Of a DNA stretch of 47,469 nt, positions 13,209 to 18,407 are shown piece after piece. A program made the translations under genes and the position numbers. Each line of letters opens with the position of its first letter. Position 1 is the first letter of the stretch. The notes beneath the pieces are model-generated. The model was not told the origin of the DNA and did not search any database. It worked only from the letters and a program-made list of their open reading frames with translations. The stretch comes from a virus (taxonomy: Duplodnaviria; Heunggongvirae; Uroviricota; Caudoviricetes): the IMG/VR virus record IMGVR_UViG_2877274432_000010; one strand, given 5' to 3'.

Positions 13209-13285
13209 GGCCCTTTAGCTCAGTTGGTCAGAGCGAGCGACTCATAATCGCCAGGTCGCTGGTTCAAGTCCAGCAAGGGCCACCA
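13209..13285 (+). tRNA. tRNA with CAU anticodon (Met or Ile2/lysidine type)
   Basis: Cloverleaf with 7-bp acceptor stem GGCCCTT/AAGGGCC, anticodon loop CTCATAA, T-loop GGTTCAAGTCC, 3' CCA; resembles E. coli ileX but diverged. Confidence 0.75.
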
Positions 13286-13286
13286 A

Positions 13287-13363
13287 CCACCACTAGCTCA
13301 TCCGGATAGAGCATCAACCTTCTAAGTTGACGGTGCGAGGTTCGAGTCCTCGGTGGTGGGCCA
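13287..13363 (+). tRNA. tRNA-Arg (UCU)
   Basis: Acceptor CCACCAC/GTGGTGG, anticodon stem TCAAC/GTTGA, loop CTTCTAA, T-arm CGAGG-TTCGAGT-CCTCG, CCA end. Confidence 0.8.
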
Positions 13364-13365
13364 GC

Positions 13366-13441
13366 GCCGACTTAGCTCAGCAGGCAGAGCAACTGACTTG
13401 TAATCAGTAGGTCACCAGTTCGATTCCGGTAGTCGGCACCA
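13366..13441 (+). tRNA. tRNA-Thr (UGU)
   Basis: Acceptor GCCGACT/AGTCGGC, anticodon loop CTTGTAA, CCA end; near-identical to E. coli thrU-type tRNA. Confidence 0.8.
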
Positions 13442-13444
13442 TAT

Positions 13445-13519
13445 GCGGGCATCGTATAATGGCTATTACCTCAGCCTTCCAAGCTGATGATGCGGGTTCG
13501 ATTCCCGCTGCCCGCTCCA
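13445..13519 (+). tRNA. tRNA-Gly (UCC)
   Basis: Acceptor GCGGGCA/TGCCCGC, anticodon loop CTTCCAA, T-loop GGTTCGATTCC, CCA end; resembles E. coli glyT. Confidence 0.85.
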
Positions 13520-13633
13520 TGACCTTTCTTAAAGTACTCCAACCTACTGAATCCTAAGGGATACGGCTTTAAGCCTCCTTGCAGAGTTACTTACTGTAAC
13601 CCACTGTGTAACCCTCTCAGGGCATGCAGACAT

Positions 13634-15238
13634 ATGATTCAGCTATCCAGTAGTCACAAACTTCCAGCAGTCTACTATCTCTACCAGCGTAACGGCGTCT
13701 ACTACTTCCGTCTTAGGGTCAGACAATCAAACAATGATAGAATGACCTCAATATCATTACGGACCAAGGATAGACGCACCGCTATGGCTTACTCAAGGCA
13801 CATAAAGGCAGCACTCAAGGCAATACACGCAGACAGACCCAACGCTACCTATGAGGAAATGAGGGAACACCTTAAGGACATCGCTGAGTGTGAACTGTCT
13901 ATGGGCCGTTCAGATCTCTTTGAGCCTGACATGAGGGATATCTACCGGGACCAATACGGAGAACTTGGTGAGAGCCTTACCGATGCTCTGGCTAGTGAGC
14001 CGCTAAGCATTGACCAGCATCGTTACATCAATGAGGCCCTGAAGGTGCTAAAAGCCTGTATGAGGCGTATCGAAGCGGGAGACAGTCAGCCTCTGATAGA
14101 TTACGTCGATCTTTTTAATGATATTGATAGGCAAGATAACCAAGCAGACTCTGTGTCCCTATCTGTTAATGCTCCAGAAGTAAAACCAGAAGTTACGCCT
14201 AGCATTACCATAGCGAGCCTCTTTGAACAATACGAAGCGGAGAACTATCAGAACTGGAAGCCTGCAACCTTAAGGGAAAACAAGGCGTCACACGCTGCGT
14301 TAATCGAAATATTCGACCATCTGGGTCTCAATGCAGACGCTAACAGGGCTGACATGCTTAGGGTCCGTGATGTGCTCCAGCAGTTACCTAGGAACCGTAA
14401 GCAGCGCTTCAAGGATGTCCCACTTGCTGACCTGTTGAGCCGTGAAGATAAGACAGATTGTCTGGATGTCGTTACCATCAACAACAAGTATCTTATTAAG
14501 ATGGCTGCTGTCTTTAGGTGGGCTGTGCGCAATGACTTGATTAAAAAGAACATGACTGAGGGTCTGGAGCTTAAAGTCCCTCAGCGTAAAGCCTCAGGGG
14601 CCCGTAACGCCTTCTCTACGGAGCAGGTGGGGCAACTACTGGTCGCAGCTAAGGCATACTCTCAGAAGACCTCTGGTAAGCCGTATCATTATTATGTTAC
14701 CGCCTTGGCTGCTATCACTGGGGCGAGACTCAATGAAATAGCCCAACTACAGGTCAAAGACGTCAGGACCACTGAGGCGGGAACCGTTTATATTCATATC
14801 AATGAAGACGATAGTAGTCTACCCGGTAAGAGCATCAAGAACGCTCATAGTGACCGCTGTGTGCCTCTGGTCGATGGGGCCTATGGTTTTATATTGGCTG
14901 ACTTTATGGCGCTTGTAGAGACCCGTAGAGGCGCTGACGGTGATGACGCTATGGTGTTCGATGGTCTGCGTCTCATGAAGAACGGTTACGGTGAGCAGGT
15001 GAGTAAATGGTTTAATCGGACGTTGTTGCCTAAAGTCCTCGTAGACCGTAGCGGCTTAGCGTTTCACTCGTTTAGACATACAGTTGCGGCCCAGTTAAAA
15101 CAACATGGGGTCGAGTTGGCGTATGCACAGGCGATCATGGGGCATAGTTCAGGGTCTATTACGTACGACCGTTATGCTAAAGAGGTCGAGGTTGATAGGC
15201 TGGTCAATGTGATGGCTGATGTTTATAAGGAGACCTAG
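13634..15238 (+). CDS. Tyrosine site-specific recombinase (integrase), 534 aa
   Basis: C-terminal catalytic region with HSFRHTVAAQL...HSSGSITYDRYA pattern (R, H-x-x-R, Y); starts 114 bp after the tRNA-Gly 3' end in the same orientation. Confidence 0.8.
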   Translation: MIQLSSSHKLPAVYYLYQRNGVYYFRLRVRQSNNDRMTSISLRTKDRRTAMAYSRHIKAALKAIHADRPNATYEEMREHLKDIAECELSMGRSDLFEPDMRDIYRDQYGELGESLTDALASEPLSIDQHRYINEALKVLKACMRRIEAGDSQPLIDYVDLFNDIDRQDNQADSVSLSVNAPEVKPEVTPSITIASLFEQYEAENYQNWKPATLRENKASHAALIEIFDHLGLNADANRADMLRVRDVLQQLPRNRKQRFKDVPLADLLSREDKTDCLDVVTINNKYLIKMAAVFRWAVRNDLIKKNMTEGLELKVPQRKASGARNAFSTEQVGQLLVAAKAYSQKTSGKPYHYYVTALAAITGARLNEIAQLQVKDVRTTEAGTVYIHINEDDSSLPGKSIKNAHSDRCVPLVDGAYGFILADFMALVETRRGADGDDAMVFDGLRLMKNGYGEQVSKWFNRTLLPKVLVDRSGLAFHSFRHTVAAQLKQHGVELAYAQAIMGHSSGSITYDRYAKEVEVDRLVNVMADVYKET

Positions 15239-15987: not shown

Positions 15988-16059
15988 TGAAGTGGCACAC
16001 TGAATTTGGCCACCTGAACAGAGGTGATATGCTCACCTCAGAACAACACAGGTGCTCCA

Positions 16060-16362
16060 ATGAAAAAAAGAAATTTTAGCGCAGAGTTTAAACGCGAATC
16101 CGCTCAACTGGTTGTTGACCAGAAATACACGGTGGCAGATGCCGCCAAAGCTATGGATGTTGGCCTTTCCACAATGACAAGATGGGTCAAACAACTGCGT
16201 GATGAGCGTCAGGGCAAAACACCAAAAGCCTCCCCCATTACCCCGGAACAAATTGAAATCCGTGAGCTCAGGAAAAAGCTACAACGCATTGAAATGGAGA
16301 ATGAAATATTAAAAAAGGCTACCGCGCTCTTGATGTCAGACTCCCTGAACAGTTCTCGATAA
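16060..16362 (+). CDS. IS911 OrfA
   Basis: [42 protein letters not shown]... Confidence 0.85.
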
Positions 16363-16388
16363 TCGGGAAACTCAGAGCGCATTATCCT

Positions 16389-17228
16389 GTGGTCACACTC
16401 TGCCATGTGTTCGGGGTTCATCGCAGCAGCTACAGATACTGGAAAAACCGTCCTGAAAAACCAGACGGCAGACGGGCTGTATTACGCAGTCAGGTACTTG
16501 AGCTACATGGCATCAGCCACGGTTCGGCCGGAGCAAGAAGCATCGCCACAATGGCAACCCGGAGAGGCTACCAGATGGGACGCTGGCTTGCTGGCAGGCT
16601 CATGAAAGAGCTGGGGCTGGTCAGTTGTCAGCAGCCGACTCACCGGTATAAACGTGGTGGTCATGAACATGTTGCTATCCCTAACTACCTTGAAAGGCAG
16701 TTCGCCGTGACCGAACCAAATCAGGTGTGGTGCGGTGATGTGACCTATATCTGGACGGGTAAGCGCTGGGCGTACCTCGCCGTTGTTCTCGACCTGTTCG
16801 CAAGAAAACCAGTGGGCTGGGCCATGTCGTTCTCGCCGGACAGCAGGCTCACCATGAAAGCGCTGGAAATGGCATGGGAAACCCGTGGTAAGCCCGGCGG
16901 GGTGATGTTCCACAGCGATCAGGGCAGTCATTATACGAGCAGGCAGTTCCGGCAGTTATTGTGGCGATACCAGATCAGACAGAGTATGAGCCGGCGCGGA
17001 AACTGCTGGGATAACAGCCCAATGGAACGCTTCTTCAGGAGTCTGAAGAACGAATGGATGCCGGTGGTGGGTTACGTAAGCTTCAGCGAGGCAGCTCACG
17101 CCATAACGGACTATATCGTTGGATATTACAGTGCACTAAGACCGCACGAATATAACGGTGGGTTACCCCCAAACGAATCGGAAAATCGATACTGGAAAAA
17201 CTCTAACTCGGTGGCCAGTTTTTGTTGA
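16389..17228 (+). CDS. IS911 OrfB (transposase catalytic part)
   Basis: 279-aa ORF downstream of orfA in the shifted frame. Confidence 0.8.
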
Positions 17229-17236
17229 CCACTTCA

Positions 17237-17882
17237 CTGGCAGGCTCATGAAAGAGCTGGGGCTGGTCAGCTGTCAGCAGCCGACTCACCGGTATAAACG
17301 TGGTGGTCATGAACATGTTGCTATCCCTAACTACCTTGAAAGGCAGTTCGCCGTGACCGAACCAAATCAGGTGTGGTGCGGTGATGTGACCTATATCTGG
17401 ACGGGTAAGCGCTGGGCGTACCTCGCCGTTGTTCTCGACCTGTTCGCAAGAAAACCAGTGGGCTGGGCCATGTCGTTCTCGCCGGACAGCAGGCTCACCA
17501 TGAAAGCGCTGGAAATGGCATGGGAAACCCGTGGTAAGCCCGGCGGGGTGATGTTCCACAGCGATCAGGGCAGTCATTATACGAGCAGGCAGTTCCGGCA
17601 GTTATTGTGGCGATACCAGATCAGACAGAGTATGAGCCGGCGCGGAAACTGCTGGGATAACAGCCCAATGGAACGCTTCTTCAGGAGTCTGAAGAACGAA
17701 TGGATGCCGGTGGTGGGTTACGTAAGCTTCAGCGAGGCAGCTCACGCCATAACGGACTATATCGTTGGATATTACAGTGCACTAAGACCGCACGAATATA
17801 ACGGTGGGTTACCCCCAAACGAATCGGAAAATCGATACTGGAAAAACTCTAACTCGGTGGCCAGTTTTTGTTGACCACTTCA
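17237..17882 (+). mobile_element. Partial IS911 (3' ~650 bp) in tandem with the complete copy
   Basis: Sequence from the internal orfB position (CTGGCAGGCTCATGAAAGAG...) to a second right terminal repeat ending at 17882. Confidence 0.8.
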
Positions 17883-18110
17883 TCTAGGGTCTCTCTATAG
17901 GTCTTCTCTATGGTCTCTCTATAGGTCTCTCTAGGGTCTCCTCTAGGCATTACCCCCAGAAGCTAACTCTATGGCCCTCTATGGTCCTCTATGGCCCTGT
18001 ACGTCATTCTTTAGGATGCCCTGTAGTTTCGTATAGCCTGATGCCTAGAGAGACCCTAGAGAGACCCTAGAGTGGCTCCTAGAGAGACCCTCCCAGTAGC
18101 TCCGCACAGC
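17883..18110 (+). repeat. Arrays of a 13-bp motif (GGGTCTCTCTAGG-like) in direct then inverted orientation
   Basis: Direct copies at 17883-17945, CTATGGNCCT x3 in the centre, inverted copies CCTAGAGAGACCC x3 at about 18048-18100; the same motif also flanks the left side of IS911 (15965-15987). Confidence 0.8.
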
Positions 18111-18251
18111 TACATCGTCATCATCATAGTATTCAATCTCAAAGTCATTCTGTTTGCATCCTGTTGTCCTGCTGGTCTCCCTTCGCTTGGGGACTTTGAG
18201 TAGGTCAGTGGGGGTGCGACTTCAGGGTGCAAACAAAAAGGAAATCAAGCG

Positions 18252-18407
18252 ATGTCTCAACAACCACAACAACCACAACAAGAAATCAGCATCATTAACC
18301 TCGACCAGCTTGTGTCCATGACCTCAGTTGAAATTGCTGAGCTGACAGGCAAGGAGCACCGAAATGTCCTTCGTGATATTCGTAAGATGCTCGAAGAACT
18401 TAACGCG
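18252..18407 (+). pseudogene. Rha-family phage regulatory protein, N-terminal fragment truncated by IS1
   Basis: SMTSVEIAELTGKEHRNVLRDIRKML matches the Rha N-terminal motif; frame runs into the IS1 end at 18408. Confidence 0.55.

Follow-up and report, generated by a model that had tools for sequence, protein, structure and literature searches.

An IS-damaged T7 island, an integrative element with promoters for T7-group phage RNA polymerases, in a lambdoid prophage

The element found in the 47,469-nucleotide stretch of viral DNA analyzed here (the window; IMG/VR record IMGVR_UViG_2877274432_000010) is an IS-damaged member of the T7 islands, and nothing sets it outside this family. T7 islands are integrative elements of 4-6.5 kb in Enterobacterales that carry their own tyrosine integrase and integrate into tRNA-Gly genes at the 3' end; all DNA downstream of the integrase is placed under promoters of the type read by the single-subunit RNA polymerases of T7-group lytic phages. 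Judged from sequence, infection by a T7-group phage most likely switches the island on via the phage's own polymerase, and the complete reading (a T7 island, phage-polymerase switch-on, origin mimicry, and interference with the phage) is the best explanation, which we favor with modest confidence. The island and its surroundings have the following features.

13209-13519, four tRNA genes, anticodons CAT, Arg-TCT, Thr-TGT, and Gly-TCC (ARAGORN)
13445..13519, + strand, prophage-borne tRNA-Gly(UCC) gene (ARAGORN), whose 3' end is the left attachment site
about 13503-13519, attL core, at the 3' end of tRNA-Gly(UCC)
13520..13633, + strand, left island arm, containing two TGTAACC heptamers (13595 and 13607)
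13634..15238, + strand, tyrosine integrase gene, 534 aa, intact ORF, 114 nt 3' of tRNA-Gly
15251..15613, + strand, promoter cluster 1, three 121-bp tandem repeats with one exact T7 class III promoter each
15327-15349, 15448-15470, and 15568-15590, + strand, T7 class III consensus promoters, 23 nt
15625..15784, + strand, conserved non-coding block with nested inverted repeats (AACTTATCG...CGATAAGT; GATGACC...GGTCAGTC)
15785..15935, + strand, AT-rich array of CTTAAAG-type (TTAAAG) repeats; 74% A+T over 15770-15945
15940..15968, + strand, hairpin GGTGAT-(AT-rich loop)-ATCACC with flanks CCTTAAGG
15988..17883, + strand, IS911 insertion foreign to the island, with a complete copy (15988-17236) and a partial 3' copy (17237-17883)
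17884..18091, no strand assigned, repeat arrays, TCTAGGGTCTCTCTATAGGTCT on the left and CCTAGAGAGACCCT on the right (inverted), around a CTCTATGGNCC array of 10-bp period
18146..18230, + strand, conserved leader hairpin (about 30 bp; MFE fold) that precedes the first cargo gene
18252..18407, + strand, 5' part of a Rha-family gene, about 51 codons, cut by IS1 at 18408
18408-19175, IS1, which truncates the Rha-family gene

A sequence-only reading of this DNA had proposed a 534-aa integrase 114 bp past tRNA-Gly on the same strand, followed by a T7 promoter array, AT-rich repeats, 13-bp motif arrays, and a truncated Rha-like regulator gene. Each of these elements was recovered, the motif arrays (17883-18091) having units of 10-14 nt and left and right halves that are mutually inverted. 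Although this layout stood, the accompanying estimate of about 3 kb of non-coding cargo did not, as 1.9 kb of it is IS911, which had been missed, and the non-coding island DNA amounts to about 1.1 kb. The window IS911 copies are 98.9% (complete) and 99.7% (partial) identical to the IS911 of Escherichia coli VL7S7 (L004); one sister contig (L012) is without the IS911 insertion, and two other loci (L015 and L032) are without the partial copy.

Residues 329-516 of the integrase match Pfam Phage_integrase (E 2e-17), there is a weak DUF6538 match, and the candidate catalytic residues R365, H478, R481, H504, and Y514 are invariant in an alignment of nine sequences (A1). The enzyme shares 96% identity with that of the intact island in E. 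coli 21AR0133. Identity is 87% between the window and Klebsiella enzymes and 77% between some E. coli variants; because identity is higher across genera than among some variants of one species, these values indicate horizontal spread. An excisionase was not identified.

The tRNA cluster is part not of chromosomal housekeeping DNA but of a lambdoid prophage; in an intact relative, the Q antiterminator and the holin flank it. The window tRNA-Gly is 98.5% identical, to the last base, to the tRNA of the uninterrupted prophage of E. coli VL7S7. Unlike this insertion into a prophage-borne tRNA-Gly(UCC), relatives insert at the 3' end of the chromosomal tRNA-Gly(CCC), which most of them adjoin; the intact ones are 4.2-6.4 kb long and have 17-23 bp direct repeats of the tRNA-Gly(CCC) 3' end. 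A search of the window for the corresponding repeat, which had been suggested as a way to define attR, found neither attR nor further island DNA. Comparison with IS-free E. coli relatives, also suggested, recovered intact islands with att repeats at both ends and the promoters inside these boundaries, in agreement with the earlier proposal of an integrative island. The TGTAACC heptamers are likely arm-type integrase sites. An identical pair with 12-bp spacing occurs inside attR of every complete island, and one or two copies occur inside attL of each, compared with a chance expectation of about 0.3 copies per strand per island.

An IS1-associated deletion took the cargo and attR from the window copy, which also has no second promoter cluster. 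This copy is probably immobile, and it is most likely non-functional except for the intact integrase ORF and the three intact promoters. Elsewhere, 386 of 5426 complete E. coli genomes (7%) carry the integrase family, always on the chromosome. The islands occur in at least 11 enterobacterial genera besides that of E. coli; the compact layout with both att ends is maintained in >10 genera, and relatives were found in Klebsiella, Enterobacter, Citrobacter, Buttiauxella, and Shimwellia as well as in Pectobacterium, Lonsdalea, Rouxiella, Serratia, and Edaphovirga.

The promoter sequence TAATACGACTCACTATAGGGAGA is present in three exact + strand copies (starts 15327, 15448, and 15568), and no match with up to three mismatches was obtained in 100 shuffles. 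A 27-nt stretch is identical to T7 phi13, and 26 nt are identical to phi6.5, phi10, and phiOR; the genomes of T7, phiA1122, and similar phages each contain the promoter with its flank 8-14 times. Of the 5426 complete E. coli genomes, 212 carry T7 promoters. These lie at 271 places, 268 of them chromosomal, and the places among the matches listed have coordinates consistent with the glyU island. Two phage-type promoter clusters on the integrase strand are found in most E. coli islands examined and in most islands of other genera; the window's own variant has cluster 1 only, and a few truncated loci have one promoter site or none.

Promoter classes across the islands include T7, K11-type, and Kayfunavirus-type, and a single island may hold two or three classes in tandem. 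Kayfunavirus promoters are found in E. coli variant D, Enterobacter, and Citrobacter islands, and K11/Przondovirus-type promoters in Klebsiella-type islands only; two further classes matched no specific phage group in the phage collection. Where the class can be identified, it is that of phages infecting the host genus, a result that bears out the earlier suggestion that the island is keyed to T7-like phages.

Between the promoter clusters, the islands have a conserved non-coding region of roughly 500 nt. In the window, the block at 15625..15784 has about 45 nt that are invariant in E. coli, Klebsiella, Rouxiella, RIT691, and Edaphovirga, with one compensatory change (in Klebsiella); this block gave no Rfam hit and no similarity to T7. 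Three elements appear to resemble parts of T7, with z-scores that internal repeats inflate. The AT-rich array is similar to the T7 primary origin in its AT-rich portion (5923-6010; local alignment score 25 versus 12.4 +/- 2.0 for 500 dinucleotide shuffles) and to the short-repeat array at the T7 left end (161-400; z about 7). The hairpin at 15940..15968 matches T7 39316-39366 downstream of phiOR (34/50 identical, z about 6-7), and the motif of the downstream arrays approximates the T7 left-end repeat GTCTTTAGGTCT when the latter is reverse-complemented (z 4-6). These downstream arrays are shorter in one relative (L001), and the hairpin is kept in T7-type islands. The AT-rich array matches the corresponding regions of Kayfunavirus EcoDS1 far less well. 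Kayfunavirus-type islands have no AT-rich array and no similarity to Kayfunavirus cis regions apart from the promoters, and origin mimicry is therefore not general.

In an alignment of 15 leader hairpin sequences (A4), 96.6% of cells were paired, compared with 37-54% in slid controls, and compensatory changes were present in six pairs, a level reached by none of 500 shuffles. Many of the changes are from G-U to G-C or A-U, which points to the leader acting as + strand RNA. A search with covariance model R1 did not find the hairpin in T7 or EcoDS1. At the nucleotide level, the truncated Rha fragment that follows is 88.9% identical to the beginning of the 234-aa Rha gene in a relative (L002), a gene that matches Pfam Phage_pRha (E 8e-18). 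Among the island ORFs scanned, no RNA polymerase, replicase, or structural genes were detected, and cargo proteins other than RAZR had no recognizable defense domains.

Full-length homologs of RAZR/PD-T7-4 (PADLOC E 2e-100) lie directly 3' of the integrase in many E. coli and Klebsiella islands; the window island has no RAZR gene, and its promoter array occupies this position. RAZR defends against T7 and T3 and is triggered by the T7 portal protein (PMC13017515), and PD-T7-4 was noted to "overlap an integrase gene" (PMC9519451). Neither paper mentions the promoters or the island.

These features suggest the following sequence of events. The island would lie silent at its att site, a step of which the att repeats, arm sites, and integrase are the observed part. 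The RNA polymerase of an infecting T7-like phage would then recognize the consensus promoters and transcribe the conserved non-coding region, the hairpin leader, the gene for a Rha/KilA-N-type DNA-binding protein, and the variable cargo, timed with the shut-off of host transcription. We infer this step because promoter identity is exact and several promoter classes match T7-like phages of the host genus. Transcription that runs into the TTAAAG array of T7-type islands would, with moderate support, mimic the T7 primary origin and lead the phage replisome to amplify the island. Products induced in this way, and in many sister islands the RAZR abortive-infection RNase as well, may hinder the phage and protect kin cells; RAZR activity is published, and the remainder of this step we infer. 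Spread via packaging in phage capsids is possible but unsupported.

Such packaging is central to a different joint reading, in which the island is a true satellite that excises, has concatemers made by the T7 replisome, is packaged into T7-like capsids by signal mimicry, and integrates at tRNA-Gly of new hosts, with phage interference secondary. We regard this reading as possible but doubtful. It would account for how so small an integrative element, itself devoid of transfer genes, is nevertheless present in >10 genera with cross-genus similarity, and for the conserved region between the promoter clusters. In T7-type islands, the resemblance of the arrays to the T7 left-end repeats flanking the concatemer junction, the phiOR-downstream-like hairpin, and the origin-like AT tract are also consistent with it. 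However, BLAST found no copy of the T7 terminal repeat or packaging site (pac) in the island, which encodes no replicase, primase, or small terminase subunit, and no circular, attP, or concatemer forms were present among 22 metagenome contigs or in IMG/VR. T7 also degrades host DNA early in infection. In addition, the RAZR of sister islands stops T7 infection abortively once the portal assembles (PMC13017515), in conflict with a satellite's need for productive virion assembly. In favor of the satellite reading, satellites of virulent phages known as PICMI (phage-inducible chromosomal minimalist islands) are packaged as concatemers (PMC10803314).

It is very improbable that a temperate T7-like phage, or some other prophage, left the island behind as a fossil whose integrase and promoters have no present function. 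Some T7-like phages of other bacteria do encode integrases, and the window copy is heavily decayed. Against this, 7% of E. coli genomes and >10 genera retain the compact two-ended layout, the promoters match the consensus exactly and are swapped for other phage specificities at the same positions, and no copy has a T7-like gene or similarity to phage DNA beyond the promoters. An ordinary prophage integrase beside unrelated promoter DNA, the case named earlier as refuting an island, or contamination with T7 promoters from cloning vectors can be practically dismissed: although a lambdoid prophage remnant surrounds the island, neither integrase nor promoters follow tRNA-Gly in the uninterrupted prophage (L004), intact homologs gave the opposite outcome, with integrase and promoters together between att repeats at chromosomal glyU, and the promoters occur in natural complete genomes from many laboratories and genera with conserved non-vector flanks.

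The preferred reading, a T7 island switched on by a phage polymerase, has precedents. In 2006, computer analysis reportedly found small genetic islands in enterobacterial chromosomes with tandem T7-like promoters, a tyrosine integrase upstream, and terminal direct repeats of 17-24 bases, and with neither an RNA polymerase gene nor structural genes. Our description, arrived at independently, shares the tandem promoters, integrase, att repeats, and absence of polymerase and structural genes with these islands. They were named "T7 islands" (Chen & Schneider, Nucleic Acids Res 34:1133-1147, doi 10.1093/nar/gkj511), and the combination of integrase and phage cis signals that the sequence-only reading did not recognize was already published. 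The island type has since been mostly forgotten. In the texts consulted, the 2006 full text aside, we found no mention for these islands of RAZR cargo, the leader hairpin, likeness to the T7 origin or left-end repeats, prevalence figures, or insertion at a prophage tRNA-Gly(UCC).

T7 cis signals suffice for phage replication and packaging of T7 transducing plasmids (Chung & Hinkle 1990, as cited in PMC9860248). As in the T7 primary origin, the islands have T7 promoters ahead of an AT-rich tract, and the similarity to 5923-6010 has statistical support; they differ in showing no terminal repeat or concatemer junction and in the absence of the tract from Kayfunavirus-type islands, and their origin function is putative. 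PICMI of Vibrionaceae are likewise very small integrative islands tied to virulent phages, with defense cargo and no capsid-remodeling genes, but they integrate next to fis and have three core excision/replication proteins (PMC10803314), whereas T7 islands lie at tRNA-Gly and have phage-polymerase promoters in place of a replication protein. P4, PICI, and PLE are also phage-responsive integrase islands without structural genes, often with defense genes (PMC10085698, PMC10111431), but most of them rely on temperate helpers, and they themselves encode regulators, replication proteins, and functions for packaging or capsid redirection, none of which T7 islands encode. The window copy, which lies co-oriented inside a lambdoid prophage late operon, further resembles helper-embedded PICI (PMC10085698, PMC10111431).

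The part of the island that survives in the window runs from the tRNA cluster to an IS1 element and contains the following features.

13209-13519: tRNA cluster predicted by ARAGORN, with anticodon CAT (tRNA-Ile by a relative's annotation), Arg-TCT, Thr-TGT, and Gly-TCC
13634-15238: integrase ORF of 534 codons, on the same strand as tRNA-Gly and 114 nt beyond its end
15327, 15448, and 15568 (starts, + strand): three exact copies of the T7 class III consensus promoter TAATACGACTCACTATAGGGAGA (23 nt, -17 to +6)
15625-15784: block of nested inverted repeats
∼15785-15935: AT-rich array of CTTAAAG-type repeats
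15940-15968: hairpin GGTGAT...ATCACC
15988-17883: IS911, complete at 15988-17236 and followed by a partial second copy (3' 647 bp) at 17237-17883
17884-18091: arrays of TCTAGGGTCTCTCTATAGGTCT and inverted CCTAGAGAGACCCT
18146-18230: leader hairpin
up to 18408: Rha-family gene, first 51 codons only, ending at IS1

The integrase has a Pfam Phage_integrase domain (PF00589) at C-terminal residues 329-516 and a weak N-terminal match to DUF6538. Its tyrosine recombinase residues (R365, H478, R481, H504, and Y514), which follow the R..H-x-x-R..H..Y pattern, are invariant in an alignment of nine integrase sequences (A1). The three promoters are spaced by a 121-bp tandem repeat whose array begins at 15251, just past the integrase stop at 15238; by sequence they are identical to T7 phi13, phi6.5, phi10, and phiOR over 26-27 nt, and none of 100 dinucleotide shuffles of the window contained a match to TAATACGACTCACTATAGGGAGA at ≤3 mismatches. 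No gene for a cognate phage RNA polymerase was found in the window, where the largest ORF encodes 571 aa (the T7 RNA polymerase gene has 2652 nt).

An earlier sequence-only reading of this DNA had given the island about 3 kb of non-coding cargo rich in promoters and repeats. These elements are present, but IS911 fills 15988-17883, so the true non-coding DNA of the island amounts to ∼1.1 kb, not 3 kb. Comparison with relatives, which this reading had proposed, recovered intact islands of 4.2-6.4 kb (IS elements discounted), and a sister contig carries the same island and lacks IS911. The partial IS911 copy is missing from two further loci (L015 and L032, sister contigs) that are otherwise identical to the window, and it could be either a real tandem duplication or an assembly artefact.

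The tRNA genes next to the integrase have counterparts in a prophage of Escherichia coli VL7S7, where all four (98.5% identical) are flanked by the Q antiterminator and holin genes and nothing is inserted after tRNA-Gly. From this comparison, we conclude that the tRNA cluster belongs to a lambdoid prophage and that the island was inserted at the 3' end of the prophage tRNA-Gly(UCC) gene, in the orientation of the late operon. The remainder of the window is a prophage remnant that encodes a DnaC-like ATPase, a DUF1367 protein, an ORF6N protein, and tail fibres, and it contains many copies of IS1, IS600-like elements, and IS911. The IS1/IS600 junction marks a loss that took the right part of the island together with the prophage genes for lysis and morphogenesis. 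Missing there are the lysis and head genes that would separate the tRNAs from the tail-fibre gene at 21069 (regions 13109-13519 and 18408-21100). The placement of this copy inside a lambdoid prophage late operon, co-oriented with that operon, recalls the helper-embedded PICIs (PMC10111431). An intact second gene with Rha and Ash domains (38877-39509, minus strand) lies in another prophage fragment of the window and is unrelated to the truncated Rha gene of the island.

The relatives show what has been lost. Both close and distant E. coli relatives are located at the chromosomal glyU locus (actS-tRNA-Gly(CCC)), and islands with both ends are 4.2-6.4 kb long, excluding IS elements; a direct repeat of the tRNA 3' end, 17-23 bp long, marks their boundaries. 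Thus, the proposal that this DNA is an integrative island was correct, with the integrase and promoters lying inside these repeats, and the direct repeat that it proposed to look for at the right end (attR) exists in intact relatives and is absent from the window. A pair of TGTAACC motifs 12 bp apart is found ∼90 nt inside attR in every complete island, and one or two copies lie ∼80 nt inside attL; because only ∼0.3 copies per strand are expected by chance, their presence at both ends fits putative arm-type integrase sites. At the predicted junction of the excised form (attP), the attR arm (...CTTCGATACTTCGATTCCCTTCGCCCGCTCCA) would be joined to the attL arm (TGACCTTTCTTAAAG...).

Gene order in the intact islands is constant. 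It runs from the integrase through an optional DUF4145 gene, promoter cluster 1, a stretch of ∼500 nt that lacks a conserved ORF, and promoter cluster 2 to a hairpin leader, a gene for a Rha/KilA-N/Ant-like DNA-binding protein, one to three variable cargo genes, and attR. Each cluster in the relatives has one to four promoters, and the integrase gene is upstream of them on the same strand in all relatives and in the window, whose own variant is missing promoter cluster 2. The island ORFs encode integrase, RAZR (the DUF4145/HEPN protein, which also has a zinc finger, see below), Rha/KilA-N/Ant-like proteins, DUF6971 proteins, and proteins of unknown type; searches of the scanned ORFs against Pfam, PHROGs, and NCBIfam found no RNA polymerase, replication protein (primase, replicase, or initiator), terminase, or structural protein. 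The window island contains no second tRNA 3'-end repeat, none of the downstream parts of the intact relatives, and no RAZR gene (downstream of the integrase stop at 15238, the repeat array begins at 15251), so that its left end alone survives. It is a decayed and probably immobile example.

The sequence-only reading did not recognise this combination of features, which had in fact been described in 2006 under the name of T7 islands. The abstract of that description, by Chen and Schneider, reportedly gives islands of 4-13 kb with two or three tandem promoters, an upstream tyrosine integrase, and 17-24-base terminal repeats, and is said to report no polymerase or structural genes. The island in the window has tandem promoters, an upstream integrase on the same strand, and no polymerase or structural genes; since the features given for T7 islands agree with our reconstruction, the element in the window is a member of the described kind, and this copy is possibly among those listed in 2006. 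Our searches of the literature on satellites, T7 promoters, and defence returned no modern treatment of such islands, and those on satellites combined with T7 and on Shigella sonnei D2 371-48 returned nothing. In a library of 8 million papers, the 2006 description has only five citing papers, none of them on satellites or defence, so that this kind of island, although known, has been neglected. As far as we have seen, the RAZR connection, the leader hairpin, the T7-like cis elements, the prevalence figures, the insertion into a prophage tRNA, and the tandem multi-class promoter clusters with their match to the T7-like phages of the host genus are new here.

The islands are common and widespread. 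The integrase-plus-promoter region is present in 386 of 5426 complete E. coli genomes (∼7%) and is chromosomal in all of them. A T7 promoter together with island flank occurs in 212 of the 5426, at 271 places, 268 of which are chromosomal. Among the matches listed, the T7-promoter places are unannotated and have coordinates consistent with the glyU island, with a few exceptions such as a 1.6-kb plasmid record and a laboratory strain. In a survey of one genome per species, integrase relatives with 71-87% identity were found in Klebsiella, Lonsdalea, Rouxiella, Enterobacter, Citrobacter, Buttiauxella, Shimwellia, Pectobacterium, Serratia, Edaphovirga, and an Enterobacteriaceae isolate, and most of those outside E. 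coli adjoin a tRNA-Gly(CCC) gene. The window integrase shares 87% identity with that of Klebsiella and 86% with that of Edaphovirga but only 77% with some E. coli variants, a pattern that implies transfer between genera.

The strongest comparative result is that the island promoters track the phages of the host. In most islands, phage-type promoters occupy two shared positions on the strand of the integrase gene, and it is the specificity region of these promoters that varies. T7-type promoters are found in many E. coli islands, the window, Rouxiella, Lonsdalea, isolate RIT691, and others. A Kayfunavirus-type promoter, ACTAAACTATCACTATAGGGAGA, is found in a second E. coli variant, Enterobacter, Citrobacter, and Buttiauxella, and matches the promoters of K1F-like phages (7-10 per genome) and the annotated promoters of the Kayfunavirus EcoDS1. 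The K11-type promoter (AATTAGGGCACACTATAGGGAGA) and AATTAGGTAGCACTATAGGGAGA occur in Klebsiella-type islands only; their counterparts in T7-like phages of Klebsiella with 40-kb genomes number 7-9 sites per genome. For two further promoter classes, only generic T7-like promoters were similar in the phage collection.

Several islands combine two or three promoter classes in tandem, as in Klebsiella pneumoniae ATCC 13883, where K11, T7, and K11 promoters lie within 100 nt. Promoters have evidently been exchanged while their flanks stayed conserved, which points to selection on polymerase specificity rather than to fossil sequence. That several of the classes are those of T7-like phages of the host genus argues for ongoing selection.

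Other cis elements accompany the promoters. Just after cluster 1 is a conserved block, CGCATCCTTTCAGGGGCGGGATG (window, 15625-15784; relative loci L001, 8060-8225, and L018, 7245-7405), in which ∼45 nt are invariant across five genera, a conservation that exceeds that of the integrase protein. The block contains nested inverted repeats with one compensatory change, the T7-type version being nearly invariant, and it has no similarity to T7 and no phage match; a search of Rfam found no known RNA family in the island non-coding region. Kayfunavirus-type islands have a diverged version of the block, and for their 540-nt inter-promoter region RNAalifold gave a weakly supported fold of 109 pairs, 21 of them compensatory, with a weak covariation term.

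In its promoters followed by an AT-rich tract, the window island also resembles the T7 primary origin in architecture. The AT-rich array scored 25 against the AT-rich part of that origin (12.4 ± 2.0 for 500 shuffles, all of which were exceeded) and had a z of ∼7 against the T7 left-end short-repeat array; because internal repeats inflate such z-scores, origin or packaging mimicry is a lead, and one for T7-type islands only. The hairpin at 15940-15968 is identical at 34 of 50 positions to the one downstream of T7 phiOR, and the GGTCT arrays can be aligned to the T7 left-end repeats when these are reverse-complemented. The matches of the AT-rich array, hairpin, and GGTCT arrays are weaker against EcoDS1 than against T7. 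A Kayfunavirus-type island compared with EcoDS1 has no such similarity, and these islands lack the AT-rich tract. That T7 primase sites (GGGTC/TGGTC) form the core of the repeat arrays is an idea only, since a 5-mer offers too little sequence for a statistical test.

At the sensitivity of BLAST, the presence of a pac site or terminal repeat copied from T7 was rejected: the promoters were the sole match of the island non-coding DNA in 50,697 phage genomes, and the result was the same with word-7 BLAST against T7. The leader hairpin precedes the first cargo gene, whichever gene that is; pairing in the 15 aligned sequences reaches 96.6% (slid controls, 37-54%), with six compensatory pairs (0/500 shuffles). 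A phage origin for this hairpin was also rejected, since its covariance model (R1) gave a best E of 0.46 in T7 and EcoDS1, which is not significant.

In many sister islands, the DUF4145 protein encoded directly after, or overlapping, the integrase gene is a full-length match to the PADLOC PD-T7-4 model (E 2e-100), and such a match is seen in Klebsiella as well. The RAZR/PD-T7-4 genes follow the integrase, upstream of the phage promoters, in these relative loci.

L007: 8759-9388
L008: 8735-9394
L009: 8759-9418
L018: 6397-7029

PD-T7-4 was found through functional selection for T7 resistance and was said to "often overlap an integrase gene" (PMC9519451); renamed RAZR, it is an abortive-infection RNase for which the phage portal ring is the activator, and it protects against both T7 and T3 (PMC13017515). 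Neither paper mentions nearby T7 promoters or an island context. At the 3' ends of the islands are the cargo modules.

L001: 9478-9951
L002: 11340-12962
L009: 11372-12933
L018: 8922-10610
L021: 11345-12881

Three modules recur, namely DUF6971 with a 373-402-aa protein, a pair of 163 and 326 aa, and a single 157-aa protein. None of them matched a defence function in PADLOC, Pfam, PHROGs, or NCBIfam, and an effector domain common to the first cargo proteins was sought and not found. We regard the recurrent modules as candidate new anti-phage modules.

The sequences show an integrative element that encodes a recombinase of its own and has att repeats, predicted arm sites, and exact phage promoters that point into a cargo operon. 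Polymerases of the T7 group are highly promoter-specific, and T7 shuts off host transcription, so expression of the island during infection would be obtainable only through the phage enzyme. By analogy with T7 biology, infection by a T7-group phage would switch on the non-coding region, the DNA-binding protein gene, and the cargo. In T7-type islands only, the promoter and AT tract may in addition serve as an origin for the phage replisome, a step to which the origin-like architecture lends moderate support. The reading that we narrowly favour is that the islands provide infection-activated interference, and the presence of RAZR and variable cargo speaks for such a defence role.

Full satellite behaviour, including transfer in phage capsids, is a plausible but unproven alternative to which we give a lower probability. 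The phage-specific promoters are the only, and indirect, evidence for induction, excision, and packaging by a helper. The conserved non-coding region, the arrays resembling the T7 left end, and the wide horizontal spread favour such hitch-hiking. Excised or packaged forms were not found in metagenome contigs or IMG/VR. The 22 metagenome contigs with the conserved block are all integrated, with no terminal overlaps and no attP order; IMG/VR matches are prophage calls from isolate genomes, with no circular or attP form; and an exact-protein look-up among the longest contigs gave chromosomal contexts only. In its most specific version, which we hold only tentatively as a whole, T7 islands would be satellites of virulent T7-group phages that outsource transcription, replication, and packaging to cis mimicry (promoters, origin-like tract, and T7-left-end-like arrays) and keep only the integrase and DNA-binding protein; with multi-class clusters as "master keys", they could respond to helpers of several genera, and their weapons as parasites would be RAZR and the cargo pairs. 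The islands resemble the P4, PICI, PLE, and PICMI satellites in having an integrase and att sites and no structural genes, but those satellites have their own replication module, and none was detected in T7 islands. PICMI elements lie next to fis and use three core proteins for excision and replication (PMC10803314), whereas the island is at tRNA-Gly and has no detected replication protein.

If the promoters work as predicted, these islands would be a natural case of a host-resident element for which the polymerase of a virulent phage serves as both infection sensor and expression engine, and perhaps even the most minimal of known phage satellites. No lytic phage is better studied than T7, and to our knowledge no satellite or phage-polymerase-triggered host element of T7 figures in current thinking. 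The islands are also relevant to therapeutic use of T7-like phages in E. coli and Klebsiella.

The glyU locus of E. coli is a hotspot for tandem islands (relative loci L008, 1-6900; L065, 1-6760; L062, 1-6300; and L056, 1-6500). Upstream of the T7 island, some strains have an element with a capsid gene (Phage_cap_E) and a DUF6538 integrase in the opposite orientation, and others have a D5_N primase/ProQ/PerC element or further islands. Like IS911 in the window, IS3-family insertions recur in the non-coding region of E. coli copies (L056-L059), between the integrase and a 187-aa gene; they would reflect either an IS target in the AT-rich region or selection for disruption of the element. A further isolate has an integrase gene (96% identical; L016, 8001-8613, and L017, 103-715) that is split at codon 204 by an IS also present in the window at 2152-3484, another sign that such islands decay in genomes rich in IS elements, probably those of Shigella.
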